The notes under the pieces are model-generated. The model made no database searches. It was not told the DNA's origin and saw nothing but the letters and a program-made list of their open reading frames with translations. DNA of 34,086 nucleotides from Candidatus Methanophagales archaeon (lineage in GTDB: Archaea; Halobacteriota; Syntropharchaeia; Alkanophagales; Methanospirareceae): assembly GCA_029241965.1 (NCBI GenBank), contig JAPWVK010000159.1:1-34086 (forward strand). The letters run 5' to 3'. A program made the translations under genes and the position numbers. Numbering within the stretch: position 1 is the stretch's first letter; every line of letters starts with the position of its first letter. Positions 4,064 to 32,419 of this stretch are shown one piece after another.

Positions 4064-5977
<1,914 letters not shown>

Positions 5978-17783: not shown

Positions 17784-17794
17784 TTCTTTCTCCG

Positions 17795-18661: not shown

Positions 18662-18799
18662 AATTACCTGTACTATTTTCGTATTAAAAGTACTTTATTA
18701 ATTTCATGCTCTTTGGTGTTTCCTTTGGCGCTATTACCAAACACAGCGCACTAATGCTTAATCCATACGCTAACGTTTTAATATTCATTTCTTTCTCCG

Positions 18800-19729
18800 T
18801 TATACAAACCTTATTGCAGGAACCCAATCATCGTATATCTCCCCGTTTGCGTCCGTGAATTTGGTGCAGGTGATTTCTCCGCCTGTTACGTTTTTGCTAT
18901 GTTCGTGTACTATCTGCGGATATGATCCTGTTTTTATTGTATAGTTGTACTTTTTACCTTCTACTAATATAAATGTATTCTCGAATTCTATGTTTTGATA
19001 ATCGTCATTGTAACCGTCCCATGAGGCACTTTCATTCACGCCATGCCCCTGAATCCAGACGTATTTGGTATGCCCGCCTGTGCCTTCACAGGAATACGTA
19101 TAGAGTGTATGCACGGTAATATCAGCATTCGGCGTAATCGTTCCAATGTGTATGCCGGAGATAGAGGGATAGGAGCCCTGACCCGTATCGAATAAAGTTC
19201 CGGTAGTATAAAACGTCCCGTTCTTCACTGGTGCTGGTCCTTCGTTACCAGACGGATCCGACAATTGAATATCACTCAGGTTCATGTCAGTTTTATATGG
19301 TGCACCGCCTATGACGCGGAAGTTAAGAAGGACGACAGAACCACTTGAGCCATTCAGTATGGCATGAGCGGATGGTCCTGAGAGTAAAACACGGGTACCC
19401 CATGCAAAGTTGTTGTTAAAGCCTAAATTGCCCCAATTAGACGTTAGAGTACCTCTTGAAACGCCTGTAACGTTTATAACCGTCTTGTCATACGCTATGT
19501 TGAATACAATGCCTAAAATCGGACCGCTGCTTGTATTTGTAATGTTTACCGGCACGGTTACATAAGTCCCTATAAGCCCATTGGCATCGTCAACACCGAA
19601 ATTATCTGCGGTGGGCGCCGCCAGAGCCGTTAACTCAAATATAGCAAATACCGTTAACAACCCGAATATAGCTAAACCCCCTCTCAGTCCTATTAAGCCT
19701 CTTCGTTTCCTCGATGCGGTTTTTTTCAT
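18800..19729 (-). CDS. cohesin-domain surface protein fused to the shared C-terminal beta domain
   Basis: 309 aa. It has a signal/TM segment and a cohesin-like domain (GTYVTVPVNITNTSSGPILGIVFNIAYDKTVINVTGV...GSVVLLNFRV...LSDIQLSDPSGN). The EGTGGHTKYVWIQGHG domain follows. Confidence 0.75.
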   Translation of the reverse strand: MKKTASRKRRGLIGLRGGLAIFGLLTVFAIFELTALAAPTADNFGVDDANGLIGTYVTVPVNITNTSSGPILGIVFNIAYDKTVINVTGVSRGTLTSNWGNLGFNNNFAWGTRVLLSGPSAHAILNGSSGSVVLLNFRVIGGAPYKTDMNLSDIQLSDPSGNEGPAPVKNGTFYTTGTLFDTGQGSYPSISGIHIGTITPNADITVHTLYTYSCEGTGGHTKYVWIQGHGVNESASWDGYNDDYQNIEFENTFILVEGKKYNYTIKTGSYPQIVHEHSKNVTGGEITCTKFTDANGEIYDDWVPAIRFV

Positions 19730-19760
19730 TGTAGTATAATATTTCTTTGGTAAAGCTTTT

Positions 19761-20810
19761 TCATTTCTTCTTTCGCAACCAAAGGTATCCCATGAGTACG
19801 AGCAATCCTCCAGAAACGAGGGTCATTGTACTCCATTCAGGAATCGGGTAGCCCGGGTCCGTTCCGGGTGATGATATGTAGCTCCATGCCATACCGGTCT
19901 GCACCTTGTAGTCATAGCTCGTATTGTTGTTTGTCAGATTGAGTGCTAAAAACTTTCCTGCCGGCACAGTAAACGCTGCTGCGGTTGTTTCAAACGAGAA
20001 GACGCTTTTGCTGCCGTTTCCAGTCAGTGTTGCCTGTGGTCCTCCGGCAGTAAAATTGGTGCCACCCGAAGAATTACCTATCTCAACCTTGAATGTATCT
20101 CCGTCTGCCGGTGCCGCGACAAACGTTATCTGCCCTGTCCAATTGTTGCCATTCACTGGAAAGGTAACGTCTGTCTGCGCCGCTGAATCCGCAACCCAGA
20201 TATGAGAGTCGCTGTGGTTTATGGTAATATTACCCTGTGGTTTGGTCTGGTTTCCCTTGTACATCTCGCTGTCGTTGTGCAGATACCAGGACTGTGTGCC
20301 GCTGACAGTAAAAGTCCCATTCTTTGGGGGGGCAGATCCTATTCTATAACCGCTTACATCTGAGAAGCTTATATTTACATACGTAAAGTTCATAGTACTT
20401 GTTTCACCCCGAGTTCCAATAACGCTGAAGTTGAGTAGAGCGACAGAACCACTTGACCCATTTGATATGTTATATTCGGCAGCTCCCGTCATGTAAACAC
20501 GAGTACCCCATGTAACGCTGTTGTTATAGTCGAAATTATTCCAACTAGACGTTAAATTACCTTTTAAAACGTCTGTAACGTTTATGACATTTTTGTCATA
20601 CACAATATTAAATATTATTCCCAAAAGTGGACCGTTGCTAACATTTGTAATGTTCACCGGCACAATCACCGAAGTCCCATGTGCGCCACTCGCATCGTCC
20701 ACACCAAAACTTTCCGCAGTAGGATCTTGTGCTGAAACAGGCATCGCCATTACAAGTACTGACAACAGCACGATTGCACTTAGTCCATGCACCCATCTAT
20801 TTCTATTCAT
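19761..20810 (-). CDS. cohesin-domain surface protein with a second beta domain and a C-terminal sorting/anchor signal
   Basis: 349 aa with a signal peptide. The cohesin-like domain has GTSVIVPVNITNVSNGPLLGIIFNIVYDKNVINVTDV...GSVALLNFSV. The C-terminus is PIPEWSTMTLVSGGLLVLMGYLWLRKKK: a motif, a TM helix and a basic tail, resembling PEF/PGF-CTERM archaeosortase-type signals (inference). Confidence 0.75.
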   Translation of the reverse strand: MNRNRWVHGLSAIVLLSVLVMAMPVSAQDPTAESFGVDDASGAHGTSVIVPVNITNVSNGPLLGIIFNIVYDKNVINVTDVLKGNLTSSWNNFDYNNSVTWGTRVYMTGAAEYNISNGSSGSVALLNFSVIGTRGETSTMNFTYVNISFSDVSGYRIGSAPPKNGTFTVSGTQSWYLHNDSEMYKGNQTKPQGNITINHSDSHIWVADSAAQTDVTFPVNGNNWTGQITFVAAPADGDTFKVEIGNSSGGTNFTAGGPQATLTGNGSKSVFSFETTAAAFTVPAGKFLALNLTNNNTSYDYKVQTGMAWSYISSPGTDPGYPIPEWSTMTLVSGGLLVLMGYLWLRKKK

Positions 20811-21084
20811 TTTTCTGGCTTCGGGGCAAAAATATATCTTTCCCCCCCTTTTTTCTAACCGCTTATCCCTTTCGCTTTTATTCTATATGCACTGTACCAT
20901 ATATAAAGTTGTATGTGGAGTGTTCCCTATATAAAGCTATACCTATGTGGAAACTATGGTGTGTGAACAGGCAGAAGCACAGGAGAATATGCGAATACGC
21001 TCTTTCGGTTGCAATAAAGTCCAATTTGGGTAATCTGTGCGATCCGTAGTTGACTATTATCCAGAGCACATTCGTCTCGCTTCA

Positions 21085-21714
21085 TCATGTCAATATGATT
21101 TCGCCCAATACCGCCCGGTTCATCAACACTAAATCGCCGGCATCTGCTATCCTATCGTTATGGTTCAAGTCCCACCGCCAATCTCCCGGTATTTCCCATA
21201 ACACCGCTCGGTTCATCAACACTAAATCGCCGGCATCTGCTGACTTCCCCTCATTGTTCAAATCGCCTACCAGCCAAAGCGATAGATTCGTGGTCTCATT
21301 GGCAGTTGCATTTACTTCAGTTGAGTTATCCCAATACCTTGTTTTCGAGGCGTTTACGTAATAATCGCCGGCATTAACGTTTGTAAAGTTGTAATAGCCC
21401 GTTCCGTTCGTGTGTGTTGAACTTACGACATTCATAGTGGTCGCGTTCGTCAAATTTACCGATACATTTGGCATCCCGATAGTAGTATTATTACTATATG
21501 TTATCTGCCCTGTTATAATTACGGGTGCGGGCAGCACCGTTACGTACTGTACTGCAGCAAACACGAGTGAGGGAAGCAGCGCTAATACCACTAAAATCAA
21601 TATGATCATCTCCTTCTTTCTATTACTCTGTTCCATCTTTTTAAATGCTCTTTTTTTGTTAGAATTTGCTTCAAAATCCAAAGCCGCACTAATCGCATTC
21701 ATTCTTCCCAGCAT
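21085..21714 (-). CDS. dockerin-containing secreted protein with a CarboxypepD_reg-like beta-sandwich domain
   Basis: The C-terminus carries a duplicated dockerin segment: GDLNNEGKSADAGDLVLMNRAVLWEI and WDLNHNDRIADAGDLVLMNRAVLGEI. The DNA duplication is visible at 21100-21250. The middle region GQITYSNNT...TNGTGYYNFTNVNAGDYYVNASK resembles a carboxypeptidase-regulatory-like fold. The internal Met at 21636 gives a cleaner signal peptide (MEQSNRKKEMIILILVVLALLPSLVFA). Confidence 0.75.
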   Translation of the reverse strand: MLGRMNAISAALDFEANSNKKRAFKKMEQSNRKKEMIILILVVLALLPSLVFAAVQYVTVLPAPVIITGQITYSNNTTIGMPNVSVNLTNATTMNVVSSTHTNGTGYYNFTNVNAGDYYVNASKTRYWDNSTEVNATANETTNLSLWLVGDLNNEGKSADAGDLVLMNRAVLWEIPGDWRWDLNHNDRIADAGDLVLMNRAVLGEIILT

Positions 21715-22136
21715 AGTTTAACCTTCTCCCCCTTTAAAAAGTTAGCATCGAAGAGGTCTAAACCATTGACCCTGCCTAAGATTGGCGGAACATCATTTGA
21801 ATCTGAAATTGCCACTGGTAACTCGAATTCTTTACCGTTGAGTCTAAATTTGAGTTGGTGAATGTAAACGATTAGTTTTGCGTACGGAACAATCCCTCTT
21901 GTGACATCTTCAATTAATAAGTCGCCGACATCTCTTGGTAGGACCGATATATCAGCACCAGTATCTGCTAATGCATTCTCTATTTTTATCCATTCTAAAG
22001 TATCGCCTTTTATTTCAACTTCAATCAGAGGTCTTAATACCTTCCCAAAAATTCCACTTTCTTTTTCCGTGTACTCAAAAACTTTCTCGGGCATTTGAAC
22101 ACCTAAGCTATTAAAATTCCTGCTGGTGGCTCCCAT
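21699..22136 (-). CDS. retropepsin-like (clan AA) aspartic protease
   Basis: 145 aa with an ALADTGADISVLP active-site motif and a C-terminal ILGRVNGLD flap/dimer-type segment. It is a full-length paralog of the truncated 6445..6696. Confidence 0.65.
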   Translation of the reverse strand: MGATSRNFNSLGVQMPEKVFEYTEKESGIFGKVLRPLIEVEIKGDTLEWIKIENALADTGADISVLPRDVGDLLIEDVTRGIVPYAKLIVYIHQLKFRLNGKEFELPVAISDSNDVPPILGRVNGLDLFDANFLKGEKVKLCWEE

Positions 22137-22258
22137 CTAATAGATAATTTTTTGTTGGGATATTTCACCTTTGCTCGTTTCCACATCTCTTTTAAATTCC
22201 TACCTTCTAAAATTGGTTTTCCATCAGCCAATACAAAGTATTCATACATTTTTTCCAT
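22103..22258 (-). CDS. small (51 aa) ORF upstream of and overlapping the retropepsin-like gene (DUF5678-like pattern)
   Basis: Hand translation gives MEKMYEYFVLADGKPILEGRNLKEMWKRAKVKYPNKKLSIRWEPPAGILIA, with ATG at 22258 and TAG at 22103-22105. It is below the 60-aa cutoff of the ORF track. It overlaps the downstream start by 34 nt. The family assignment is from memory. Confidence 0.35.
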   Translation of the reverse strand: MEKMYEYFVLADGKPILEGRNLKEMWKRAKVKYPNKKLSIRWEPPAGILIA

Positions 22259-22343: not shown

Positions 22344-23801
22344 TTATACCGCTTCTCCCAACACCGACACCGTGGATGTGTCCGTTCCCGACCCTTTCAG
22401 CTCGTATGCCAGATACAAGTCATTGTAAGTTCCTACGGATACTGTTACCCCTGTATCTTTATAGCTACCCCATGACTTTAGAGTAGTCCAGCTACTGACC
22501 GCCCAGGGGCTCGTGTCATCTACGGTTACATTACAGAAATGAACCGGATAACTCTCTATGGCTGAAGACGTATTTGCATCCCTGACGAAGCATGCTAGCG
22601 TTATTGTCTCCCCTACGGTGTAACTATTTTCGTCAGGAGGCAAATCCCATGTTACGTTTGACCAGCCCCACTTAACCACCGACTCATTCTGATAAGAGCT
22701 GTTAGAATTAGATGCATTGTCATAAGTTGTTTCGGTAATATTGTATTCTCCGTCCTCAGGGACGGACAAAGTAACGACAAAAGTTCCATTTGTGGCGTTT
22801 GTAGTTGAATTGACTATCTTTCCTTCGTAAGGCACTTTGTCTATTTTCTTGATGATTACAGGTTTATTATTCTCATCAAGGGCGACCAAAATTCTTCCAT
22901 CCGAAATCTTCTGGTAGATGTTTTCTATCCTTATAAGAGAGAATTTATTTATATACCCGTTGCCAATATTATCAGTGGTGGTAGAAATGTCGGAAGTCGA
23001 AATCAGGTTTAAAGTTCCCACGGGATTGAAGGAAGAGATGGAAGAGCTTCCGGGAATGGAAGAGATGGTTGTAGAATTCATAAGGCTGAAGATTTTCGAG
23101 CATGAATTGAAGAAGTCTAAGGAATTACAGAGGTTCATATTTGAGTCGTTGTCCGCAAAGAGCAAATTGACGCTGGCAGATGCTATTGAACTTGGGGCGA
23201 AAATGAAGGAAGGAATGCTTGAAGAGCTCAAAGAGAAGGGATTACTGTAGATGAGACTGGTTGTGGATGCAAATGAGCTGTTCGCGGGGATAATCGCTAA
23301 AGGTAAGGAATTACAGAGTTGGACGCTGGACATATTATTTTCAGATGAAGTTGAATTGTTCGCACCTTTCATATTGCTTGCCGAATTGGAGAAGAACAGG
23401 GATGAGATAAGGGAAAAGTCAGGATTTTCCCTGAGGGATTTTGATGTGTTCGTTGGCATCCTCAAGTTAAGAGTCGGATTTATCCCTCTGGAGCGGTTTT
23501 TAGCTAAGATTCCGGAGGCTAAGGAGTTGGCACCGCATTTAAAAGATGTCGAATATTTCGCATAAGCATTGAAACTTGATTGCCCAATCTGGACGCAAGA
23601 AAAAGCGTTCAAAAAACAATCTGTAGTCAAGGTGTTCTCAACTCTTGATTTGTTTTCGTTTTTATCCGAGACAGGCCCATAGCCCGCTAAAGAGGTTGAA
23701 GGATATTTTGGATTGACTGAAGTGTAAACCTTATGCTCTGGCGAAAACGTCAGAACTGTTTCGTATCTACTCAAATCCATAAATCTTATTTTTTGCTTCA
23801 T
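22344..23801 (-). CDS. orphan 3' fragment: decayed Hint unit (no Cys1, truncated block F/G) fused to a shortened copy of the giant protein's C-terminal domain; probably a remnant or silent cassette
   Basis: Its ATG overlaps the giant gene's stop (ATGA at 23798-23801). The N-terminus KQKIRFMDLSRYETVLTFSPEHKVY aligns with QKPIKYLEYDY...LLVSPEHKVY. The middle ~230 aa is a Ser-rich translation antisense to TA cassette c. The C-terminal ~190 aa aligns with the giant protein's C-terminus. The last ~100 nt are about 90% identical by eye to 23798-23895. Confidence 0.55.
   Translation of the reverse strand: MKQKIRFMDLSRYETVLTFSPEHKVYTSVNPKYPSTSLAGYGPVSDKNENKSRVENTLTTDCFLNAFSCVQIGQSSFNAYAKYSTSFKCGANSLASGILAKNRSRGINPTLNLRMPTNTSKSLRENPDFSLISSLFFSNSASNMKGANNSTSSENNMSSVQLCNSLPLAIIPANSSFASTTSLIYSNPFSLSSSSIPSFIFAPSSIASASVNLLFADNDSNMNLCNSLDFFNSCSKIFSLMNSTTISSIPGSSSISSFNPVGTLNLISTSDISTTTDNIGNGYINKFSLIRIENIYQKISDGRILVALDENNKPVIIKKIDKVPYEGKIVNSTTNATNGTFVVTLSVPEDGEYNITETTYDNASNSNSSYQNESVVKWGWSNVTWDLPPDENSYTVGETITLACFVRDANTSSAIESYPVHFCNVTVDDTSPWAVSSWTTLKSWGSYKDTGVTVSVGTYNDLYLAYELKGSGTDTSTVSVLGEAV
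22987..23250 (+). CDS. small antitoxin-like protein, cassette c (antisense inside 22344..23801)
   Basis: Starts MSEVEIRFKVPTGLKEEMEEL and ends ...GAKMKEGMLEELKEKGLL. Layout and length match the antitoxins of cassettes a and b. Its stop abuts the PIN start (TAG-ATG). An AT-rich TATA-like ATTTATTTATATA lies about 35-45 nt upstream. Confidence 0.6.
   Translation: MSEVEIRFKVPTGLKEEMEELPGMEEMVVEFIRLKIFEHELKKSKELQRFIFESLSAKSKLTLADAIELGAKMKEGMLEELKEKGLL
23251..23682 (+). pseudogene. PIN-domain (VapC-like) toxin, cassette c, interrupted by an in-frame TAA at 23563-23565
   Basis: Starts MRLVVDANELFAGII.... It reads ...APHLKDVEYFA-stop-ALKLDCPIWTQEKAF...SETGP, compared with cassette b ...SPDPNDVDFFALALKLNCPLWSEDKLL...SLISP. 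The stop replaces a Leu (TTA to TAA). Homology continues in frame to TAG at 23680-23682. Confidence 0.6.
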
Positions 23802-26800
23802 ACCGCTTCTCCCAACACCGACACCGTGGATGTGCCCGTTCCCGACCCTTTCAGCTCGTATGCCAGATACAAGTCTTTGTGTGTTCCTTTGGATACTCTT
23901 ACCCCTGTATCTTTATAGCTACCCCAAGATTTTAGACTAATCCAGCTACCAACAGCCCCGGGGCTCGTGTCATTTGCGGTTACGTTAAACTTCTCGTCAT
24001 TTATTATTGTTGACCAACCGTTCACCTCTTCTACCTTCAGCCAGATCTTGTATTCAGTCGAAGAAGAAGGATTGTAAATTGTAACTACTGGTGAGTTACT
24101 GGTCACATTTTGCGGGTTGCCGCTGCCGTCCGCATTATTGTGTGGGTCAACTACTGTGGCACCAGTTGCACCCGAGAAGTTAATGGAACTGATACTCTGC
24201 GAAGCAGTTTGATTTCTGATTTCAAGTGTCGTTGCGTATGACAACTCTATGGATGTATTGGCTTCATCATCCGCAGTGACGTTATAAAACAGCGTGGCAT
24301 TATCCGTGATATTACATTTTGGATAGTACCATCCTACTGCCACGCCTGATGTATCCCAATCCAGGACGGCATATCCGCTGCTATTCGTGTAATTCAGACC
24401 AAGGTATGTCACGGTAGAGTCAGTCTTGTTATAAAAACGAACCGGATAATTCTCTATGCCCGATGAGGTATTGACATCGCGGACAAGGCATGTTAGCGTT
24501 ATTATCGCACCTGATTCGTAACTACTTCCGCCGGAAGGCGAGCCCCACGTTACGTTTGACCAACCCATCTTAAACACCGATTGATTTTGATACGAGATAT
24601 TATAATTCGATGCGTTATCATACATCTCTACCGACACGTTGTATTTCCCCTTAGCAGCACTTGAATTTAGATAAAAACTCGCATTTACATACGAATTTGG
24701 TGTGTAAGCAGTATCCGACGACGAATTGATGGTCGCAGTAGCGTTGTATATCGTGACCGTGTAGTTCTTTGGATTATCCTCCGTGTACGAGAAGTTGACA
24801 TAAAACTGCTCGCCGCCCTTCTTGTAGATTGGAACGGAAGTTGTAGGCACGTCTATCGTGATAGTCGGTGATTGCGAATCTATGGTGAAGTTCGTACCGA
24901 GCCACGTCTCTGACGTCTCGCCCTCATCGTCTGTTGCCACGCAATGCAACGTATAGAGTCCGGGACTATAATTGGATGCGTTGAACGCTATATCGGCAAT
25001 CCCGCCAGCGGCATCCGCTTCGGTAAAAGTATTGTTTACTATCGAAATAAATGTCTGGTTCGGATAGCACAAAGTCAGATTATGAACCACTGTGCCGCCG
25101 TCCGGATCGGTCGCAACCCCAACACCAATATCGAATATACCGTCATAGCTACCATTCATATCATAGTCCTTTACACCACTGATATTGAAATACCTAATGT
25201 GCGGGACGGTAGGTGGATAGTGCACCAATCTGATGTCGTTTGTAAGCAGCGTTGAATTGCTCCAACTACCCGATGCGTTTGCTGCATACAGCTTCATCTG
25301 GTGCTGCATACCACTTTTAGAGTAGTCGAAAAATAACTTCGGCGTCCATGCCGCCTGCAAAAATGACGAGCCATCATTGGTACTCGTCCATGCAACGTTT
25401 GTTTGCGCAAACGATATGTTCATACCGCTCGTACCATCTACATACGCCAGGCGGTACTCATTGCTTGTAGCTGTCGGAGATCGGAAGTATATGTATCCAT
25501 GCGGTGTTGTGTTTACGTCAGAACCTATAACCCTGCTATTGTTCACACCAATCGTAAAGGTCACGAACGAACTGTTGTACGGCTCGTACGTGTAATCATC
25601 TACTGTTGTGCCAGTGTACGAAGTCAAGTAAGTATAATATGGACTTTCGAGTGGCTTACCGCCAGTGATGTTATACGAGTCGTTTAGGTAGTAAATATCA
25701 AGATTGTTCGATGCTCCCAGATCGGTTGCCTCGAAAGCGATATGTATTTTATAGTCCGAAGAACCTTTAATTGCTTCAGTGTCCCAGAACTTGACCAGAG
25801 CAGCACGGTATCCTGTTGAGCCCTGTTTATAGATGTCATAATATTTGCTAATCTCTTTCTGCATCCGCGTCCTATCTAAGTAATACATGTTCTCAAATAC
25901 AGTATTCTCAACCGTGCCATTCCAGTGCACATACGAGTGCGTGTCATTTACCTTTTGGATAGTAAGCCGGGAAGTGTTTTCATCCGCGCCCGCCCATTTC
26001 CAGACGTTGCCCTCTGTGATGGTGGCATTATCCTCAAAGTTCAAGCGCTGTATTGTAGCATTCCGGTTATCGGCACGTAGAATCTGCTCGTTGCATAAAG
26101 CCCATACCGCAGATTTGTTGTTGCTCGGAACACGGAGTGACCAGTTATAACTATCGAGCACCGAGTCCCAGAGCGTCCAGACGAGCGATACGCTGCTGTT
26201 ATTGAGTGTATGTGTAGCATCCGTAGTAACCAACCAGGTTACGTTGAATGCACCGGTCGAGTTCTCGTAAATCGTAGCCGGCTCCTGCGAGATGAGTTCA
26301 AATGTCGGACAGCCCGCCTGATTGTATGCATAATCGACGTCACCACCAAATCGAAACTCTAATGCGTGTTTGCCCGAAGTTAAAACCTTACTTGTTTCGT
26401 AGCTGGTTTCGTTACAGGAATAATTGTGTATGAATAAGGAATTGTTTCGCCATTGATAATCCAGTGTGCGATTGCCGCATTTCAGGGCAAGCAATTGCAG
26501 GTCATAGTTTGAGTTGCCGCACCAGACAGGCGTTGAGTTTTTACGCCGTATTAAAAGTATGCGGTTCGGGACGGTAACAGAGTAAATCTTGCCGTTATAA
26601 GGGACTTCTTCGATTTTTTTTACTGCTACGGGATTCTGTTCGGAATCGAGGAATACTAACTGTTTGTCGGGTAGCTCGTGGAGTTCCGAGATTTTTAGCA
26701 ATGAATAGGTATTTAAACCGTTCGGATTTATAGTATTAGTGATGACGGTTTCTTTTTCATTCACGGTCACAGGCATCGAGAAGTTATTTAAATACAGCAA

Positions 26801-29800
26801 GTTAGTTTTATTATTGGTGAGAGAAATGGCCGAAATAGTTGTTAAGGTTCCAGAGGATATTGGTATAGAGCTTGGTAGGGTTTCAGAAGAGAATTGGCAA
26901 TTGTTATTCTCAAGATTCCTGAGAAGAGAGCTGGAAGAAATAAGAGGGATCGAAGCGATAGTATCTAAATCAAAACTAACAGAGGAGCAAGCCAAAGAAT
27001 TAGCAGATGAAGTAAGTTTAGCGATAGCTAAAAGACTTCTTGAGAAGTGATTCGAGATGTTATTGGTAGTTGACGCTAATGTCGTATTCTCAGCACTAAT
27101 AAGAAGAGGCAAGCCATTAAGGGTATTTGAGTTGAACAAGCTTCTCATGAAATTTGAATTTATTGCACCAGAGTTCCTGTTCTTTGAGGTGGGTAAAAGA
27201 ATGGATAAAATACTCAAGCTCACAGATTTATCTAAAGAAGAGTTCATAACGGTTTTTTCATTCATTAAGAATGAACTCGAGCTAATTCCTCTTGAAACAT
27301 TTGAAGATAAAGTTGATGAAGCCAAGGAGAGATCACCACACTTGAAGGATATGCCATATGTTGCTTTATCCCTCAAATTCGATTGTAAGATTCTGTCTGG
27401 AGATAAAGGAATAAAGGAATGCTTGCCTGGTAGAGTCATCATACCATCTAAAGCCTTAAGAATTCTATTTGGGAGGACTGCACCATAAACCTTATGCTCA
27501 GGCGAAACCAGCAGTTGACTGCCATCTTCCAGAGTAAGCTCGAACATCGCATCCGAATAGTCGTATTCCAGATATTTAATCGGTTTCTGATTGCAAAAAA
27601 GTTTTGTGTGTTCTTTTGTAATTTGTGGTTTCCTTGTGGTTTCGTTATGCCGTTTCACCAGCACGATGTCGTTCGGGACGTCAACGTCATAAATCTTGCC
27701 GGTATAAGGGACTTCTTCGATTTTTTTTACTGCTACGGGATTCAGCTCGGAGTCAAGGAATACTAACTGTTTGTCTGATAGCTTGTCATAGAGTTCCGAT
27801 ATTTTTAGCAATGAATAAGTATTTAAATACAGCAAGCCAGTCTTATAATTAGGGGCGATAGAAATGTCAGAGTTAGTTGTTGAGGTTCCAGGATTGCTTA
27901 GAGGAGAGGTTGGTAAGCTAGAGCGAGAGATAGAGGAGCTAATATCGTGGGAGGAGAAGCGTAAATTACTCTCTCTGTTCATGGATGAGGTTATGAAAGA
28001 TGCTAAACAGTTGAGCGAAGACGAACTGGTTACACTTGGAAGAGAGATTAAGAAAGGCAGGTTTGAAAAGCTCAAGCAAAGGGGGTTTGTATGAGTGCGG
28101 TTAGTTGCTGACACAACCGAACTCTTCTCGTTCTTCAACGCTCGGTCAAAGGCAAGGGAGTTATCCATAATCCCTGAATTGGAATTACATTCCCCCTCCT
28201 TTTCTTTATATGAACTCAAAGAACATAAATCCAAGATTCTTACGAGTTTCTCGTTGACCGAGACACAGTTTCTATTGATAATGAAGTTGCTTAAGACCGT
28301 TGTAAAAGTTGCTAAAGAGGAAGAATACTCGGATTTTCTATCGGAGGCTAAGGAAATATCTCCAGACCCTAACGATGTAGATTTCTTTGCGTTGGCTCTG
28401 AAACTGAACTGTCCGCTTTGGTCAGAGGATAAGCTGCTAAAGGGGCAGTCTAAGGTTAAGGTACTCTCTACAAAAGATTTACTTGAACTTTTATCTCTCA
28501 TCAGCCCATAAACCTTATGCTCAGGCGAAACCAGCAGTTTACTGCCATCCGCCAGAGTAAGCTTGAACATCGCATCCGAATAGTCGTATTCCAGATATTT
28601 AATCGGTTTCTGCCATTCCTGCTCTCCCGTCTCCTGGTTTAAAGTCAGAACTTCTTCTTCTGGTTCTAAATCTTTGAACAGTTTCCAGCCTTCTTTTGTT
28701 AGAACCTCGGTTTCTTCGTCGTAACATTCGTACGGTTGGTTAGTCCAGGTCGTCCCGTTAACCGCGGTTATAGTCAAATCCGCAGTTCCTTCCGTCTCGA
28801 ACTTGACAGACCAGTTTCCACCTACTGCTGGATAAGACTGGACATTAATTATACTAATCGGATCAACAGCAACATACCAGGGTCTTGCCTCTGTAAATGT
28901 TTCTGAATCATAACTAATTTCCGCAGTACCTAAAGCGTACAAATAAGGCCACACAGGAGGAACTGCGTAAGAATAACTGACAGATGTTTTCTTGCCAATT
29001 AAATCTTTATTCCAGGTTATTGTCTTTGTATCGTCTTCCTGCATAACCGTAGCGGCATCCGTTGAATACACATCGAACTCAGCAGGCACAAATTCTTTTA
29101 ACGTTACGGATTCCGCATCAGTAAAGCATTCTACGTCAATCCTGACCTCAAACCTGTCCTGCAGTGTGGGGTCTATCTTGCTTTGTGTCGTTCTTATGAT
29201 GTCGAATTCATACTCCGGCTGAACCCGGAAATACGTATTGAAGAATACTTCAACGTTGTCAATTAAACCCGTGACTGAGATCGAGTGATTACCCTCTATT
29301 TCCGTTGGGTAATCCAGGTTATAAATGCCAGATTCGCTACTTGCGGTAATCGTGCCATCAGCGGTGGAATAAATCGTTTCCTCGTTATCGGGATTGTTTA
29401 CGGTTAAATAAAGATCGGCATTGCTGACTGAGTGCCCTGCTTTATCCAGGACAACGATAACGAATTCCACGGTTTCACCGGGTTTGTAGATGCTTTTTTT
29501 GGTGTTTACGGAAACAAGGCCCCACGGGAATTCGGATTCTAAAACGTAAACGTGCTCGTCCTTCACTAACTCCACACTTAATGTATATACGCCCACTCGG
29601 AATGCTCGTTCCTTAGGCAATTTAATTGCGAATTTGCCTTCGCCTTTTTTCGCTATTTCGGGCGCGATGTCTGTTAGTGCACCCGAAGAATCATAAACAA
29701 AAGTCTCTATCGTTTCGTTTTCTGTCACCCAGCGTTTCAATGCTTTTTGGGGTGCGCCAATAGCAGCTTCCTCACTTACAGTGCTAAGCATTTCCCGCGA

Positions 29801-30460
29801 TGCGTTTTCGGTAACATTTTCATTAAAAGTTTTCTGCGAAGCGTTTTTGATAAAACTTTTATTAAAAGTTTTATATTCAAACGAAAAAGTCGGTTCCTCA
29901 TCCAGGGAATAAGACTCTTTGTTTGCAATTAGTTTTGGCGGTTCAATCACGGATTCCGTAACATTAATATTACGTGATTCACCTGTTGATTCGTTAATCG
30001 TATAATTCAAACCGATGACGGAGGTATTATCAGTTGCATTTTCCGGTGTTTGTATCGTAACGCCCGAGGCATTACCTGTTGTATTATCCGTTGTATTTTC
30101 CGGTGTTTGTAACGTAACGCCCGAGGCATTACCTGTTGTACTATTATTAGTTGCAGTTTCAGGTGTTTGTATCGTAATGCCCGTGGCATTATCAGTTGTG
30201 TTATCAGTTACATTATCAGGTGATAGTATCGGATTTATCGGTGCCGTTACGTCCGTAATATTTTCTGACGGGGTATCATTAAGGTTAGTTACGTATGATG
30301 TAATGTTTTCAGGCAGCGTTGTGTTCTCGTTTTGTGTTGCACCAAAAGCGATTAAAGGCACGATAAGCAAAGCTATGACAATTGTAATGCGTGCGCTCTT
30401 CCAGTTTGTTTTTGCTCTTAGCATCTTTTCGCAGGTCAAGCTTCCTTTTCTATCATACAT
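23798..30460 (-). CDS. giant (2220 aa) secreted, sequon-rich surface protein interrupted by a composite Hint/intein region
   Basis: Single uninterrupted ORF. The N-terminal hydrophobic signal/anchor is ARITIVIALLIVPLIAFGA. It has three tandem ~19-aa repeats (GNASGVTxQTPENxTDNT) and very many N-x-S/T sequons. It is beta-rich throughout. The intein blocks lie at aa 579-1308. It is tightly packed with upstream genes: 3-nt gap, then an ATGA overlap. Confidence 0.85.
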   Translation of the reverse strand: MYDRKGSLTCEKMLRAKTNWKSARITIVIALLIVPLIAFGATQNENTTLPENITSYVTNLNDTPSENITDVTAPINPILSPDNVTDNTTDNATGITIQTPETATNNSTTGNASGVTLQTPENTTDNTTGNASGVTIQTPENATDNTSVIGLNYTINESTGESRNINVTESVIEPPKLIANKESYSLDEEPTFSFEYKTFNKSFIKNASQKTFNENVTENASREMLSTVSEEAAIGAPQKALKRWVTENETIETFVYDSSGALTDIAPEIAKKGEGKFAIKLPKERAFRVGVYTLSVELVKDEHVYVLESEFPWGLVSVNTKKSIYKPGETVEFVIVVLDKAGHSVSNADLYLTVNNPDNEETIYSTADGTITASSESGIYNLDYPTEIEGNHSISVTGLIDNVEVFFNTYFRVQPEYEFDIIRTTQSKIDPTLQDRFEVRIDVECFTDAESVTLKEFVPAEFDVYSTDAATVMQEDDTKTITWNKDLIGKKTSVSYSYAVPPVWPYLYALGTAEISYDSETFTEARPWYVAVDPISIINVQSYPAVGGNWSVKFETEGTADLTITAVNGTTWTNQPYECYDEETEVLTKEGWKLFKDLEPEEEVLTLNQETGEQEWQKPIKYLEYDYSDAMFKLTLADGSKLLVSPEHKVYGLMRDKSSSKSFVESTLTLDCPFSSLSSDQSGQFSFRANAKKSTSLGSGDISLASDRKSEYSSSLATFTTVLSNFIINRNCVSVNEKLVRILDLCSLSSYKEKEGECNSNSGIMDNSLAFDRALKNEKSSVVSATNRTHTNPLCLSFSNLPFLISLPSVTSSSSLNCLASFITSSMNRESNLRFSSHDISSSISRSSLPTSPLSNPGTSTTNSDISIAPNYKTGLLYLNTYSLLKISELYDKLSDKQLVFLDSELNPVAVKKIEEVPYTGKIYDVDVPNDIVLVKRHNETTRKPQITKEHTKLFCNQKPIKYLEYDYSDAMFELTLEDGSQLLVSPEHKVYGAVLPNRILKALDGMMTLPGKHSFIPLSPDRILQSNLRDKATYGISFKCGDLSLASSTLSSNVSRGISSSSFLMNEKTVMNSSLDKSVSLSILSILLPTSKNRNSGAINSNFMRSLFNSNTLNGLPLLISAENTTLASTTNNISNHFSRSLLAIAKLTSSANSLACSSVSFDLDTIASIPLISSSSLLRNLENNNCQFSSETLPSSIPISSGTLTTISAISLTNNKTNLLYLNNFSMPVTVNEKETVITNTINPNGLNTYSLLKISELHELPDKQLVFLDSEQNPVAVKKIEEVPYNGKIYSVTVPNRILLIRRKNSTPVWCGNSNYDLQLLALKCGNRTLDYQWRNNSLFIHNYSCNETSYETSKVLTSGKHALEFRFGGDVDYAYNQAGCPTFELISQEPATIYENSTGAFNVTWLVTTDATHTLNNSSVSLVWTLWDSVLDSYNWSLRVPSNNKSAVWALCNEQILRADNRNATIQRLNFEDNATITEGNVWKWAGADENTSRLTIQKVNDTHSYVHWNGTVENTVFENMYYLDRTRMQKEISKYYDIYKQGSTGYRAALVKFWDTEAIKGSSDYKIHIAFEATDLGASNNLDIYYLNDSYNITGGKPLESPYYTYLTSYTGTTVDDYTYEPYNSSFVTFTIGVNNSRVIGSDVNTTPHGYIYFRSPTATSNEYRLAYVDGTSGMNISFAQTNVAWTSTNDGSSFLQAAWTPKLFFDYSKSGMQHQMKLYAANASGSWSNSTLLTNDIRLVHYPPTVPHIRYFNISGVKDYDMNGSYDGIFDIGVGVATDPDGGTVVHNLTLCYPNQTFISIVNNTFTEADAAGGIADIAFNASNYSPGLYTLHCVATDDEGETSETWLGTNFTIDSQSPTITIDVPTTSVPIYKKGGEQFYVNFSYTEDNPKNYTVTIYNATATINSSSDTAYTPNSYVNASFYLNSSAAKGKYNVSVEMYDNASNYNISYQNQSVFKMGWSNVTWGSPSGGSSYESGAIITLTCLVRDVNTSSGIENYPVRFYNKTDSTVTYLGLNYTNSSGYAVLDWDTSGVAVGWYYPKCNITDNATLFYNVTADDEANTSIELSYATTLEIRNQTASQSISSINFSGATGATVVDPHNNADGSGNPQNVTSNSPVVTIYNPSSSTEYKIWLKVEEVNGWSTIINDEKFNVTANDTSPGAVGSWISLKSWGSYKDTGVRVSKGTHKDLYLAYELKGSGTGTSTVSVLGEAV
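26826..27050 (+). CDS. small antitoxin-like protein, cassette a (antisense inside the giant ORF)
   Basis: Starts MAEIVVKVPEDIGIELGRV and ends ...SKSKLTEEQAKELADEVSLAIAKRLLEK. The start is set at the internal Met (26826) by analogy with cassettes b and c. TATTTAAATA at 26785-26794 and a GGTGA SD-like motif precede it. It ends 6 nt before the PIN start. Confidence 0.65.
   Translation: MAEIVVKVPEDIGIELGRVSEENWQLLFSRFLRRELEEIRGIEAIVSKSKLTEEQAKELADEVSLAIAKRLLEK
27057..27488 (+). CDS. PIN-domain (VapC-like) toxin, cassette a
   Basis: 143 aa with a PIN acidic quartet layout: LLVVDANVVFSAL (Asp), FFEVGKR (Glu), SPHLKDMPYVALSL (Asp), KILSGDKGI (Asp). Its last codons overlap, antisense, the HKVYG block-B codons of Hint unit 2. 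Confidence 0.8.
   Translation: MLLVVDANVVFSALIRRGKPLRVFELNKLLMKFEFIAPEFLFFEVGKRMDKILKLTDLSKEEFITVFSFIKNELELIPLETFEDKVDEAKERSPHLKDMPYVALSLKFDCKILSGDKGIKECLPGRVIIPSKALRILFGRTAP
27864..28094 (+). CDS. small antitoxin-like protein, cassette b (antisense inside the giant ORF)
   Basis: Starts MSELVVEVPGLLRGEVGKLEREIEEL and ends ...QLSEDELVTLGREIKKGRFEKLKQRGFV. TATTTAAATA lies at 27820-27829, about 35 nt upstream. Its stop TGA directly abuts the GTG start of the PIN gene. Confidence 0.65.
   Translation: MSELVVEVPGLLRGEVGKLEREIEELISWEEKRKLLSLFMDEVMKDAKQLSEDELVTLGREIKKGRFEKLKQRGFV
28095..28511 (+). CDS. PIN-domain (VapC-like) toxin, cassette b (GTG start)
   Basis: 138 aa: RLVADTTELFSFF (Asp), SLYELKEHK (Glu), SPDPNDVDFFALAL (Asp), PLWSEDKLL (Asp). 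The layout matches cassette a although the sequence is divergent. Its 3' end overlaps, antisense, the HKVYG codons of Hint unit 1. Confidence 0.75.
   Translation: MRLVADTTELFSFFNARSKARELSIIPELELHSPSFSLYELKEHKSKILTSFSLTETQFLLIMKLLKTVVKVAKEEEYSDFLSEAKEISPDPNDVDFFALALKLNCPLWSEDKLLKGQSKVKVLSTKDLLELLSLISP
30039..30215 (-). repeat. three tandem 57-60-nt coding repeats in the giant protein N-terminus
   Basis: The plus-strand unit is TTTTCCGGTGTTTGTATCGTAACGCCCGAGGCATTACCTGTTGTATTATCCGTTGTA, repeated at about 30039, 30096 and 30156. It encodes T(D/G)NxxG(I/V)TxQTPExxTxNx(T/S) repeats rich in sequons. Confidence 0.8.
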
Positions 30461-30463
30461 ACA

Positions 30464-31066
30464 TTATCTTTTCCTTCTCAACCACACCACAATCAATATA
30501 ATTACGATTGCCACGAGCGCAACAAGATGATTATTCTCCTTTAGTTCCCTTGTAATAAGGGTAAACGGATTTTGCACTGCTAAAACGTTTACTGATGCAG
30601 GTATCAGGAGCCCCGTATAAACTGTAGAGTCACCTGCACCTGCTGCTGCCGCCGAAGCATCCTCAAACAAGATGTATGTCCTTCTTTCACCGGAATGCCC
30701 TTCCATGCCTGCATCTTCAGAAGTGGCACCATACAATCCAGGTTTTGCATCTTTCGGTATGCTTATCCGCACTGAAAACTCCTTTTCTTCCCCTGCTTTA
30801 AGTGTGTAATCCTCAGGAATTACCTCTAGCCAGCTCGTTATGTTTGCCTTCGCCGAATCACCTTCCACCGTTTTATAAAAAGTGCGCCAGTGCCCTATCC
30901 TTTCCACTGATGTGCACTCCAGCGTGACTGGTATAGTAAGCACATCGCCTGCATATCCTTCGTTATTGCAGATGGATAACCGATTTACCGCGGTTGCTGC
31001 TACAGATGCGATAGTTACTACGAAGATGAGAACCAATATTGTTAGTGCTATTGGTATCTGCCTCAT
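30464..31066 (-). CDS. anchored surface protein (signal peptide, Ig-like/CARDB-NEW3-like domain, C-terminal TM plus RRKR tail)
   Basis: 200 aa and a paralog of 31063..31722. The shared pattern is CNxEGYAGD...TSWLEVIPEDYTLKAGEEKEF...PGLYGATSEDAGMEGHSGERRTYI...YTGLLIPASVNVL. The fold name is a guess. Confidence 0.7.
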   Translation of the reverse strand: MRQIPIALTILVLIFVVTIASVAATAVNRLSICNNEGYAGDVLTIPVTLECTSVERIGHWRTFYKTVEGDSAKANITSWLEVIPEDYTLKAGEEKEFSVRISIPKDAKPGLYGATSEDAGMEGHSGERRTYILFEDASAAAAGAGDSTVYTGLLIPASVNVLAVQNPFTLITRELKENNHLVALVAIVIILIVVWLRRKR

Positions 31067-31722
31067 GTTTTCCTGCGCCTGAGCAGTATTACCAGAAGCA
31101 CAACGATTACCGCTAACATAGCGATAGATAGGATATTCGATTTTAGCGTGTCTGTAATGCCTTCGAATGGCGACGGTTTTTCGGGTGTTCCTAAAACGTT
31201 AACTGAGACTGGTATTCTAATCCCTGTGTATGTGGTAGAGCCCGCACCTTGCACAACAGCTTCTGCATCAGCATCCTTGAATTCTATGTAGGTTCTTCTT
31301 TGGGCTGCATGCCCCGCTATCCCTGCATCTTCTGATGTCGCACCCCATAGTCCAAGGGAAGCATCCGAAGGCACGTTTATTATCAACATAAAATGCTTTG
31401 CTTCTCCGGTTTTTATTGTATAGTCCTTTGGTTTCACTTCTATCCAGGAAGTTATGTCCATCTTCTCCGAATCGCCTTCTATTTGCTTATAAAAAATTCG
31501 CCAGCTTCCTGTCCTATCTGGAAGGTCACCATACAGCGTCATGTCTTCCGTTATTGTATCGCCCGGATAAGCATTGAGATTGCAGAATATTACTCTCTCC
31601 GCAGTTGTTGCAGATGCTATTTGTATTGGGACTTGGACAGTAGCCGAGAGTACCAAGACTAATAACCCGAACGCTAGAATTGTTGCTATGTTCTTCGCGG
31701 TATCCGCCTTTTCGTTTCGCAT
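31063..31722 (-). CDS. anchored surface protein, paralog of 30464..31066
   Basis: 219 aa with the same domain pattern and a C-terminal TM helix plus RRRKT tail. Its stop overlaps the downstream start (ATGA at 31063-31066). Confidence 0.7.
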   Translation of the reverse strand: MRNEKADTAKNIATILAFGLLVLVLSATVQVPIQIASATTAERVIFCNLNAYPGDTITEDMTLYGDLPDRTGSWRIFYKQIEGDSEKMDITSWIEVKPKDYTIKTGEAKHFMLIINVPSDASLGLWGATSEDAGIAGHAAQRRTYIEFKDADAEAVVQGAGSTTYTGIRIPVSVNVLGTPEKPSPFEGITDTLKSNILSIAMLAVIVVLLVILLRRRKT

Positions 31723-31855
31723 GTCTTTCTTTTACTCCTGTTTATTTTAAATGTTTTTGTTTCGTGTAATGCCCTTTTTTAAAAAAAAAAGTGGGGCGAA
31801 AACGCCCCGTTCTTTATACTCCTATGCCCCCGTTCCTATTCTTAGCTACATTGTT

Positions 31856-32419
31856 TTACAGCTCGCAAGTCACGTTAAACGTTGATGTTGCCGATCCACC
31901 TTGGTTTAACGCTGCTTTTAGCCAAAGCGACCAGTTTCCATTCGCAGAGAGTGTGGTATTAGGTGCATTTGAAATATTAAGCGGTACCTCAACGTCATCA
32001 GCGAATACTGTCCAACCAGCGGGCTTTGTGCCATCAGAAACATTCCAGGATTCTGATGATATCACATTGTCACCAGTCCATGCGCCTGCGGTTATGTAAA
32101 CAGTCATAGCTGCGGCGGTGTTCGTGTTGTTCAGGCATGCTACGGCTGTTTGATTAGTAGTTATAACTTGTGTTTGACCCGCTGAATTCGCGGGATCAGC
32201 TACAGTTGCGCCAGACTGACCTGAGAAGTTCCAGTGGGTGACTGCAGGAGTTGCTGCGCCAGATTGACCTACGATTTTAACCGCCGTAATGTTCTTCGTC
32301 ACAGTTGCGTTCTGCACCGATTCGGAACCACTTACCGGTAAAGAAGCAGAGAACACCAGCATCGCCACAACAACTGCAAGGATTAGTGACAAACCTATAG
32401 TTGTTTTATCTATTCCCAT
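31856..32419 (-). CDS. small secreted protein related to the C-terminal domain of the giant protein
   Basis: 187 aa with an N-terminal hydrophobic segment GLSLILAVVVAMLVFSA. The motif NFSGQSGATVADPANSAG matches NFSGATGATVVDPHNNADG near the C-terminus of the giant protein. Confidence 0.6.
   Translation of the reverse strand: MGIDKTTIGLSLILAVVVAMLVFSASLPVSGSESVQNATVTKNITAVKIVGQSGAATPAVTHWNFSGQSGATVADPANSAGQTQVITTNQTAVACLNNTNTAAAMTVYITAGAWTGDNVISSESWNVSDGTKPAGWTVFADDVEVPLNISNAPNTTLSANGNWSLWLKAALNQGGSATSTFNVTCEL

Follow-up and report, generated by a model that had tools for sequence, protein, structure and literature searches.

A probable class 1 intein with antisense toxin–antitoxin-like operons in its endonuclease slot, inserted in a giant surface protein of an ANME-1 archaeon

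Inteins are usually seen as parasitic elements of conserved enzymes, maintained through endonuclease-driven homing. The stretch of DNA analysed here, contig JAPWVK010000159.1 of a Candidatus Methanophagales archaeon (assembly GCA_029241965.1; positions 1 to 34,086, henceforth called the window), carries a Hint domain inside the gene of a giant surface protein whose source is an ANME-1 (methane-oxidising) archaeon. Of two housekeeping-type proteins of the window that were compared (GyrB-like, 4064-5974, and 12491-13903), the second falls in a cluster at 90% identity or more together with a protein of 'ANME-1 cluster archaeon GoMg2'. This host is not a conserved replication, repair, or metabolic enzyme, and the insertion site is a loop of a predicted beta-sandwich. 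What kind of Hint domain resides in such a protein, whether it would splice or cleave, and what the genes on its opposite strand are doing there are the questions that the locus raises. An earlier interpretation made from the letters alone (the sequence-only reading) had placed the element closer to bacterial intein-like (BIL) domains and to the Hint domains of polymorphic toxins than to inteins. The explanation put forward here, which is considered fairly probable as a whole, is that of a splicing, endonuclease-less intein that carries toxin–antitoxin (TA) operons antisense to the surface-protein gene.

The host open reading frame (ORF) is real and runs through 2220 codons as a single uninterrupted frame, and the Hint element within it is a partial tandem duplication of ~1.0-1.1 kb. 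Read along the host strand, the order is blocks A and B, insert 1, a C-half ending in ..VKRHN followed by Glu, a junction of 19 amino acids (aa), a second block B, insert 2, and a complete C-half ending in ..PVWCGN. The respective parts are located as follows.

23798..30460, minus strand: giant surface-protein gene, precursor of 2220 aa, ~1482 aa after predicted splicing
28727..30460, minus strand: N-extein, aa 1-578, ending in ...AVNGTTWTNQPYE, with an MG2 domain and the first half of the beta-sandwich domain
26513..28726, minus strand: intein, 738 aa, Cys579..Asn1316, composed of two partly duplicated units
28505..28726, minus strand: Hint N-half of unit 1, block A CYDEETEVLT to block B LLVSPEHKVYG (hidden Markov model (HMM) match, E 6.5e-42)
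27644..27823, minus strand: Hint C-half of unit 1, NTYSLLKISEL..GKIYDVDVPNDIVLVKRHN (HMM positions 1-61, E 7e-29), without the WCGN end and followed by Glu
27587..27643, minus strand: junction between the units, ETTRKPQITKEHTKLFCNQ, with the direct repeat GAAACCACAA
27482..27586, minus strand: second copy of block B, KPIKYLEYDYSDAMFELTLEDGSQLLVSPEHKVYG, without block A
26513..26713, minus strand: Hint C-half of unit 2, complete with blocks F and G, ..GKIYSVTVPNRILLIRRKNSTPVWCGN (HMM positions 1-67, E 1.3e-33), carrying the clade motif
23798..26512, minus strand: C-extein, aa 1317-2220, beginning with SNYDLQLLALKCGN, with the second half of the beta-sandwich, sequon-rich beta-domains, and a conserved tail ..YELKGSGTGTSTVSVLGEAV

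The upstream insertion point reads ...TTWTNQPYE followed by Cys579, as the sequence-only reading had it, while its 3' boundary was corrected: the last residues of the intein are WCGN, and the C-extein opens at Ser1317 (SNYDLQ). The end at Asn1316 was set because of the intein-less alleles and the C-terminal motif shared across the clade. A candidate C-terminal splice site between KN and ST was rejected, as it is not conserved in P0007 (GG-KA) and both the empty alleles and the clade motif favour a cut between GN and S. At the same site, the intein-less homologues P0003 and P0026 read ...TAWSDTNE-DNDLKFL... without interruption, lack a Hint domain, and have Asp near the +1 position, whereas the element sits at the identical position (...NQPYE then C, and GN then SNYDLQ) in P0002, P0007, L026, and L108. 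The comparison with orthologs lacking the insertion that the sequence-only reading had proposed was thus possible, and it showed that the Hint region is not a universally present part of these proteins.

The catalytic residues are in place as well. The block A nucleophile Cys579 is invariant in the alignment of copies and in the relatives. Block B reads S-P-E-H (aa 645-648 and 986-989), its His being invariant and its Ser replacing the Thr of the relatives (TPNH or TPDH) throughout the subfamily. In block G the terminal Asn1316 is present, the penultimate residue being Gly where canonical inteins have His, and the +1 nucleophile of the C-extein is Ser1317. The intein ORF encodes no endonuclease in any of its frames. 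Joined without the intein, the exteins were modelled as a single beta-sandwich of 10 strands, the junction falling in a loop (model residues 53-62; pLDDT (predicted local distance difference test) 68; alignment of three sequences); the continuous domain that the sequence-only reading had suggested looking for is thus predicted with moderate confidence. Searched by fold, this spliced extein domain matched nothing but generic Ig-like or GH2-type beta-sandwiches, all at E > 1e-3, and these are uninformative about function.

The same junction between the units was found in the independent contigs L106 and L107, and it is therefore not an assembly artefact. In the junction region (27590-27665), a direct repeat GAAACCACAAG/GAAACCACAAA is present, and the sequence reads ..HN followed by ETTRKPQITKEHTKLFCNQ. 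The peptide ETTRKPQITQDY.. also ends Hint C-halves on unrelated contigs (P0029, P0033, P0035, P0037), with different sequence downstream, which suggests a recurrent recombination or insertion end.

With regard to the kind of Hint domain, the relatives of the N-half (35-60% identity) occupy canonical intein sites in MCM, an NAD-dependent sugar epimerase/decarboxylase, carbamoyltransferase, helicase, PurD-like protein, ThyX, and terminase. All 95 complete C-termini in the clade end in Asn or Gln followed by Ser, Cys, or Thr; 91 of them end in GN, typically ..W(C/S)GN, and the others in SN (two) or GQ (two). The end of the window's intein, ..WCGN followed by Ser, is the norm of the clade, and the penultimate His appears to be dispensable there because the GN end is also found in MCM and other essential hosts. 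Ser at position 4 of block F likewise occurs in other clade members. Among solved structures, the best sequence matches were all inteins. A cargo-free construct (blocks A and B of unit 1 joined to blocks F and G of unit 2) was modelled as a HINT fold (pLDDT 88, predicted template modelling score 0.83), the top Foldseek matches of which were the gp41-1, NrdHF, DnaB, and DnaE inteins (E 1e-8 to 1e-6). However, the predicted fold is about as close to BIL domains and Hedgehog as to inteins, and it does not tell them apart. Nor do the identities in the structural alignments (18-20% for most inteins, 13-14% for DnaB mini-intein entries, 10% for Tetrahymena BIL2, 18% for a Clostridium thermocellum BIL) separate inteins from BIL domains. 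In the C-extein of 904 aa, no toxin domain was detected in frame after the Hint domain by Pfam. Held against the definitions of BIL domains, both the terminal Asn and the +1 nucleophile speak for an intein, and judged by its sequence the element is classed as a true class 1 intein. In view of the canonical hosts of its relatives, the motif shared by 95 members, the structure matches to inteins, and the lack of a toxin domain, the proposed kinship with BIL domains or polymorphic-toxin Hint domains finds no support.

The two inserts carry the following genes on the plus strand, i.e., antisense to the host.

28095..28511, plus strand: PIN1 toxin gene, 138 aa, PIN_2 (Pfam PF10130, E 2.7e-20)
27864..28094, plus strand: AT1 antitoxin-like gene, 76 aa, abutting PIN1 (0 nt)
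27820..27850, plus strand: promoter-like TATTTAAATA box upstream of AT1; the host strand reads ..LYLNT..
27057..27488, plus strand: PIN2 toxin gene, 143 aa, PIN_2 (Pfam PF10130, E 8.4e-22)
26826..27050, plus strand: AT2 antitoxin-like gene, 74 aa, 6 nt from PIN2
26785..26815, plus strand: promoter-like GAGAAGTTATTTAAATA upstream of AT2

The layout, a small antitoxin ORF followed by a PIN toxin, fits type II TA systems (VapBC-like, PIN_2), and homologous free-standing PIN_2 pairs in Geoglobus and Archaeoglobus have an RHH_12 antitoxin. Across loci, the cargo PIN_2 genes match the Pfam model with E-values of 1e-20 to 1e-24, and four cargo PINs share D6, E44, and D98 without exception. Compared with the related contig L108, PIN2 is 95% identical with a ratio of nonsynonymous to synonymous substitution rates (dN/dS) of 0.20, and the dN/dS of AT2 is 0.23. 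In the window and five other loci, a motif GAGAAGTTATTTA(A/T)ATA is found ~35 nt upstream of most of the cassette start codons compared, and on the host strand the same letters encode ..LYLN(T/N)(Y/F)S.., with which the Hint C-half begins. The palindromic TATTTAAATA box (26785-26794 and 27820-27829) reads Tyr-Leu-Asn on the minus strand, in the frame that avoids its internal TAA; it is a likely TATA element of the plus-strand TA operon. At the other end, the toxin's stop codon (CCATAA) is the antisense of the host codons V-Y-G that close block B. By the block assignments, the cassettes occupy exactly the slot between B and F where homing endonuclease domains normally sit. Read in the host frame, the cargo is a Ser/Leu-rich polypeptide with no evident domain.

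If the cargo is carried within a functional host frame, this frame must stay free of stops. Within the two window inserts (680 and 767 nt), it contains 0 stops as compared to 18-24 in each other antisense frame; for PIN1, the numbers are 0 and 11-12. The host frame aligns wobble on wobble with the window cargo and is naturally stop-poor, so that 2.5-4.4 stops are expected over the four genes, and the P-value for these genes alone is 0.002-0.04 (codon shuffling and synonymous resampling). As this was not decisive, further loci and free-standing controls were collected. As the first 101 loci contained no free-standing PIN_2 genes, contigs of Geoglobus and Archaeoglobus supplied the controls, just 10 free-standing TA genes. 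Not one of the 31 TA genes that are associated with inteins (six loci) has a stop in the host frame, as compared to 2-19 stops in the other frames, whereas 1 of the 10 free-standing TA genes is stop-free in the corresponding frame (Fisher P 3e-8). In the wobble-on-wobble frame, sites at risk were defined as Tyr, His, or Gln codons after a codon ending in T (or in C before Tyr). The 29 cargo genes of eight loci contain 135 such sites, at which 40 stops are expected from their own wobble usage and 0 were observed (P ~1e-21), whereas the free TA genes contain 66 sites with 24 stops expected and 26 observed. Five cargo genes are read codon on codon with the host, and none of their 37 Leu and 24 Ser codons is TTA, CTA, or TCA, which elsewhere in the cargo account for 45% of Leu (TTA/CTA) and 29% of Ser codons (TCA). 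The host frame across the cargo is kept open by selection, and this constraint is long-lasting because the cargo PIN proteins are only 28-47% identical to each other.

Comparable arrangements recur in other loci, with three kinds of TA pairs and a retropepsin-like gene as cargo so far. PIN_2 pairs are the antisense cargo of L025, L046, L006, and L027, as well as of the orthologous locus L108, where a retropepsin-like gene is added. L005, encoding a Pacearchaeota protein of > 2735 aa, and L046 carry DUF433 and DUF5615; L001 and L026, inserted at the same NQPYE/SNYDLQ site as in the window, carry an RHH-like gene, an ORF of 100 aa, and a ParE/RelE-like gene (weak Pfam matches). The host ORF around the cargo is single and continuous in the window, L108, L001, L025, L026, and L005, and LamG, FG-GAP, and beta-helix domains are found in the hosts of cargo-bearing inteins. 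An exhaustive search with the 738-aa intein yielded 46 cluster representatives at E <= 1e-30, and the top 147 were inspected. At the protein level, 43 of these 147 have a Ser/Leu-rich insert of 190-520 aa between the Hint halves (combined Ser and Leu fraction 0.26-0.35, as compared to 0.10-0.19 for ordinary endonuclease inserts in the same set), mostly in giant LamG-type surface proteins of up to 7293 aa. Several hosts hold two or three such inteins (P0180, P0182, P0184), and the N-extein of L046 contains, upstream of the TA-bearing intein (~4400-4990), a second, degenerate Hint start (..SGYCYDEETEILTLEEIDCSL..). On viral contigs, none of 83 intein N/C pairs of the clade has antisense cargo; L123, the sole Ser/Leu-rich viral candidate, turned out to be an ordinary LAGLIDADG intein. 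The public gene calls for the window, L105, L108, and L002 contain the giant ORF or else the TA genes antisense to it, never both: PIN2 is absent from the protein collection for the window's record, and the host ORF is missing or fragmented in L105 and L108. Antisense TA loci of this kind are a systematic blind spot of annotation.

The Hint flanks and their cargo are also found rearranged. P0002 carries a mini-intein of 190 aa at the same site, which retains a fragment of the PIN2 antisense sequence and has kept the frame and all blocks; its sequence identifies it as a frame-preserving deletion derivative. At the other extreme, seven tandem TA cassettes that share one strand are present in L105 (ANME-1-THS contig RXIE01000080.1, 1156-7993), with a giant surface-protein gene and a CARDB gene upstream of the array; L104 is a partial copy. 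Five of the cassettes are PIN_2 pairs, two of these having an RHH_12-type antitoxin; one is DUF433/DUF5615, and one a 101-aa ORF with a ParE-like gene. Each cassette is bordered, on the other strand, by remains of block B and by a duplicate of the surface protein's C-terminal tail, and the antisense-strand ORFs across the array span 962, 372, and 1016 codons. The window has one such unit directly downstream of the giant gene.

22344..23801, minus strand: orphan unit, a decayed intein unit in an ORF of 485 aa, composed of what remains of block B, sequence antisense to a third TA pair, a Hint C-half truncated within block F, and a duplicate of the last ~150 aa of the giant protein
22978..23250, plus strand: AT3 antitoxin-like gene in the orphan unit
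23251..23667, plus strand: PIN3, a PIN_2 gene (Pfam E 2e-9) aligning to the full-length PIN model across one in-frame stop (23566-23568)

PIN3 is probably a pseudogene, as far as can be told from its sequence, and the antisense frame of the orphan unit is open despite the nonsense codon. A retropepsin-like gene (D-T-G motif, weak RVP match) lies free and on the host strand just after the orphan unit (21699-22136, minus strand), preceded by an ORF of 51 aa (22103-22258, minus strand), and the retropepsin-like gene of L108 (965-1321; PF13650/PF13975) is antisense cargo inside the orthologous intein.

These data can be accommodated in the following mechanism. The giant surface protein would be N-glycosylated, and the endonuclease slot between blocks B and F of its intein would hold independent TA operons on the opposite strand, each composed of a small antitoxin and a PIN_2 toxin of RNase type and having its own archaeal-type TATA box, the antisense orientation being the only one in which the stop codons of a foreign gene cannot break the host frame. 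Translated in the host frame, the cargo would be a disposable linker that need only be stop-free and is discarded at excision. The intein would excise itself and join ...NQPYE to SNYDLQ..., giving the predicted ligated junction peptide ..AVNGTTWTNQPYESNYDLQLLALK.., and splicing would use block A, one block B, and the last F-G. The copy in the window may have arisen by unequal recombination between two inteins, giving A-B-[TA1]-F(truncated)-B-[TA2]-F-G. Both partners would profit, as the intein would make the insertion harmless to the host protein and the TA pair would penalise loss of the element, so that TA addiction would stand in for homing as the means of persistence. The shared Hint flanks would serve as recombination handles by which cargo is swapped, deleted, or amplified, yielding mini-inteins, tandem units, and orphan units.

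Several observations weigh against such a splicing element. Gly replaces the penultimate His clade-wide, and the functional C-half has Ser at position 4 of block F. The redundant F half (RHN followed by E) and the redundant B half inside the intein could lead to misfolding or to cleavage instead of splicing, and an intein of 738 aa, ~450 aa of which are probably disordered, would have to fold before or after export of a Sec-type precursor. The beta-sandwich model is of moderate confidence and based on three sequences, AT1 and AT2 match no Pfam family, and some related copies are broken, L003 by an in-frame stop and L106, L022, and L023 by frameshifts. Finally, the non-splicing orphan units, which have neither block A nor F/G, likewise keep their antisense frame open; therefore, splicing cannot be the sole reason for the constraint.

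The features of the host gene beyond the intein, and the genes directly upstream of it, are given below.

30338..30424, minus strand: signal-peptide- or anchor-like N-terminus, aa 13-41, MLRAKTNWKSARITIVIALLIVPLIAFGA, as read from the sequence
30024..30231, minus strand: 57-nt (19-aa) tandem repeat x3.6, sequon-rich (..GNASGVTIQTPENxTDNT..)
30464..31722, minus strand: two paralogous small secreted-looking proteins of 200 and 219 aa, ~50% identical, directly upstream of the giant gene

The N-terminus, a short basic KSAR followed by 17 hydrophobic residues (ITIVIALLIVPLIAFGA), looks like a signal peptide or anchor; the public gene call for the giant protein (P0001) begins at Met13. The precursor contains 90 N-x-S/T sequons where 40 are expected from its composition, 81 of them in the exteins, i.e., 4.5 per 100 aa in the N-extein and 6.1 in the C-extein as compared to 1.2 in the intein and 0-1 in the window's cytoplasmic proteins. 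A host that is giant, secreted-looking, sequon-dense, repeat-bearing, and not a housekeeping protein had been described in the sequence-only reading, and the sequon, repeat, and N-terminus data agree with it. By Pfam, the giant protein contains an MG2 domain and an Intein_splicing match (PF14890, E 3.5e-9, just above the cut-off), and the only match in the C-extein is a sub-threshold MG2. The N-extein is 69-89% identical to its relatives (dN/dS 0.50 against L108) and the last ~180-260 aa 64-73% (23798-26300 compared with P0002, P0003, and L108), whereas the middle of the C-extein is unlike the DUF2341/LamG middle of the closest relatives, diverging from ~70 aa past the splice site. On these alignments, the giant protein can be regarded as a mosaic. 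The intein was considered as the breakpoint of this mosaic and dismissed, as the divergence begins ~70 aa past the junction, at a domain end, and is not attributable to the intein.

The tight packing noted in the sequence-only reading (31722-22344) is confirmed: the two upstream genes (31063-31722 and 30464-31066, minus strand) share 4 nt, a further 3 nt separate them from the giant gene, and the ORF downstream overlaps the giant gene's stop by 4 nt (ATGA). The giant gene does not close the cluster of surface-protein genes, however, as secreted sequon-rich genes run on to ~16980; altogether ~9 genes with N-terminal hydrophobic segments flank it (16980-22136 and 30464-32419), several of them sequon-rich (<=6.3 per 100 aa). 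One flanking gene (21085-21714) has a CarboxypepD_reg / SdrD B-like domain. The contig L108 has three upstream genes in the same order as in the window and represents the orthologous locus.

Three other explanations of the locus have to be weighed. According to one, the Hint domain is an autoproteolytic maturation module in the style of BIL domains or polymorphic toxins, by which the surface protein is cut or a piece of it released without ligation. The variable, secreted, and mosaic host with its C-extein diverging ~70 aa past the junction would suit such a module, as would the predicted fold, which fits BIL domains as well as inteins, the absence of the penultimate His at the true end, and the inner F half, whose His-Asn followed by Glu is BIL-A-like and could give C-terminal cleavage without ligation. 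Yet Ser, Cys, or Thr is at +1 in 95 of 95 clade members including the window, whereas BIL domains of type A, with their His-Asn C-terminus and no ligating +1 nucleophile, cleave and cannot ligate, and those of type B lack the intein C-terminal motif (PMC7765530). Moreover, its closest relatives by sequence are inteins of essential enzymes, where splicing is obligatory, the insertion lies within a single predicted beta-sandwich domain that cleavage would break, and no toxin domain follows the Hint domain; cleavage without ligation is thus considered distinctly unlikely. More remote by far is the notion that the giant ORF is a decaying pseudogene, disrupted by the TA genes and open by chance. 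A wobble-on-wobble frame with 2.5-4.4 stops expected over the four window genes leaves some room for chance, and some related copies are indeed broken, but a P of ~1e-21 over 29 genes and eight loci, with free-standing controls behaving as expected, a sequon enrichment limited to the exteins, a conserved gene order, and an extein dN/dS of 0.5 make it very improbable.

The remaining possibility is that the locus is mainly an integron-like TA cassette array that spreads and grows by recombination between the Hint and tail repeats, with an intein that is catalytically irrelevant or dead and a frame that is open for another reason, e.g., ribosome cover of a long operon mRNA that protects downstream genes from premature termination. 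The seven cassettes of L105 are without block A or F/G and all their antisense frames are stop-free, one such orphan unit is present in the window, the cargo differs between otherwise orthologous loci, and the cassettes share a promoter motif inside the conserved flank. On the other hand, full splicing blocks and the +1 nucleophile flank the cargo in one ORF in the window, L108, L001, L026, L025, and L005, the Hint halves have a dN/dS of 0.41 (N-half) and 0.28 (C-half) against L108, the deletion derivative P0002 retained the frame and all blocks, and the exact placement of the cargo in the endonuclease slot of an intein would be left unexplained. As a full account, an array with an idle intein is judged unlikely, though it and the splicing intein with antisense TA operons may both be partly true.

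Compared with known systems, the proposed splicing intein with antisense TA operons shares with class 1 inteins the HINT fold, Cys1, block B (S/T)xxH, block F, the C-terminal Asn, and Ser at +1, as well as the in-frame insertion, the intein-less alleles, and a large insert between B and F. It differs from them in its surface-glycoprotein-like host, its site in a beta-sandwich loop instead of a conserved active site, the lack of an endonuclease, the insert coding on the opposite strand, the penultimate Gly, and the tandem-duplicated B/F halves. BIL domains likewise reside in variable, secreted, non-housekeeping proteins, and the predicted fold matches BIL structures (2lwy, 6y75), but the window has a conserved +1 nucleophile and terminal Asn, a sequence clustering with inteins, empty alleles, and an archaeal source; only its internal truncated F half ends in HN followed by E as in type A. 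In polymorphic toxins, the HINT domain directly precedes the C-terminal toxin domain and an immunity gene follows, and orphan toxin/immunity cassettes form arrays (PMC3482391). Large secreted hosts, Hint-linked toxin and protector genes, and downstream orphan units with a copy of the main gene's C-terminus are common to both, whereas the window's toxins are intracellular type II TA toxins that have genes of their own on the other strand and do not form C-terminal domains of the host, and the ORF that comes next is what is left of an intein and a tail copy.

Fractured genes were described in 2009 for DNA synthesis and repair enzymes, mostly of phages (PMC2677866); in them the host is divided into two ORFs, and the gene of a homing endonuclease stands free between the two parts of a split intein. 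The window differs from them in its continuous ORF, its antisense TA operons, and its archaeal surface-protein host. VapBC-like TA modules, known as addiction cassettes from mobile elements and integron arrays, agree with the cargo in the antitoxin placed directly before the PIN toxin, the conserved acidic residues, the free pairs in Geoglobus and Archaeoglobus, and the occurrence of arrays, but here every codon overlaps a second selected frame, and the promoter and toxin stop lie inside the intein coding sequence. A continuous intein ORF, antisense cargo other than an endonuclease, and a surface protein as host do not occur together in any of these nearest known systems. The literature search, with most subscription-journal papers outside its coverage, found neither inteins with antisense or TA cargo nor inteins in ANME-1 surface proteins; an archaeal Hint domain with TA cargo, expected to be new in the sequence-only reading, thus had no precedent there.

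There is about an even chance that these loci represent widespread and so far unrecognised composite selfish elements of archaea, in which endonuclease-less inteins in giant surface proteins act as protein-level safe harbours for antisense cassettes. If so, the intein would erase the insertion from the host protein while the cargo stabilises the element, the Hint flanks would allow cassette exchange and array growth in an integron-like manner, and complete antisense gene overlap would be held by selection over 0.6-1.8 kb. The expected junction peptide and strand-specific transcripts make the model directly testable in data from ANME-1 enrichments. Long antisense overlap maintained by selection is clearly exemplified in nature by these loci. 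An intein lineage in exported, fast-evolving surface proteins raises the question of where and when the precursor would splice relative to secretion and glycosylation, and antisense genes in the endonuclease slot suggest a second route of intein persistence, by addiction instead of homing, as well as a new niche for TA systems.

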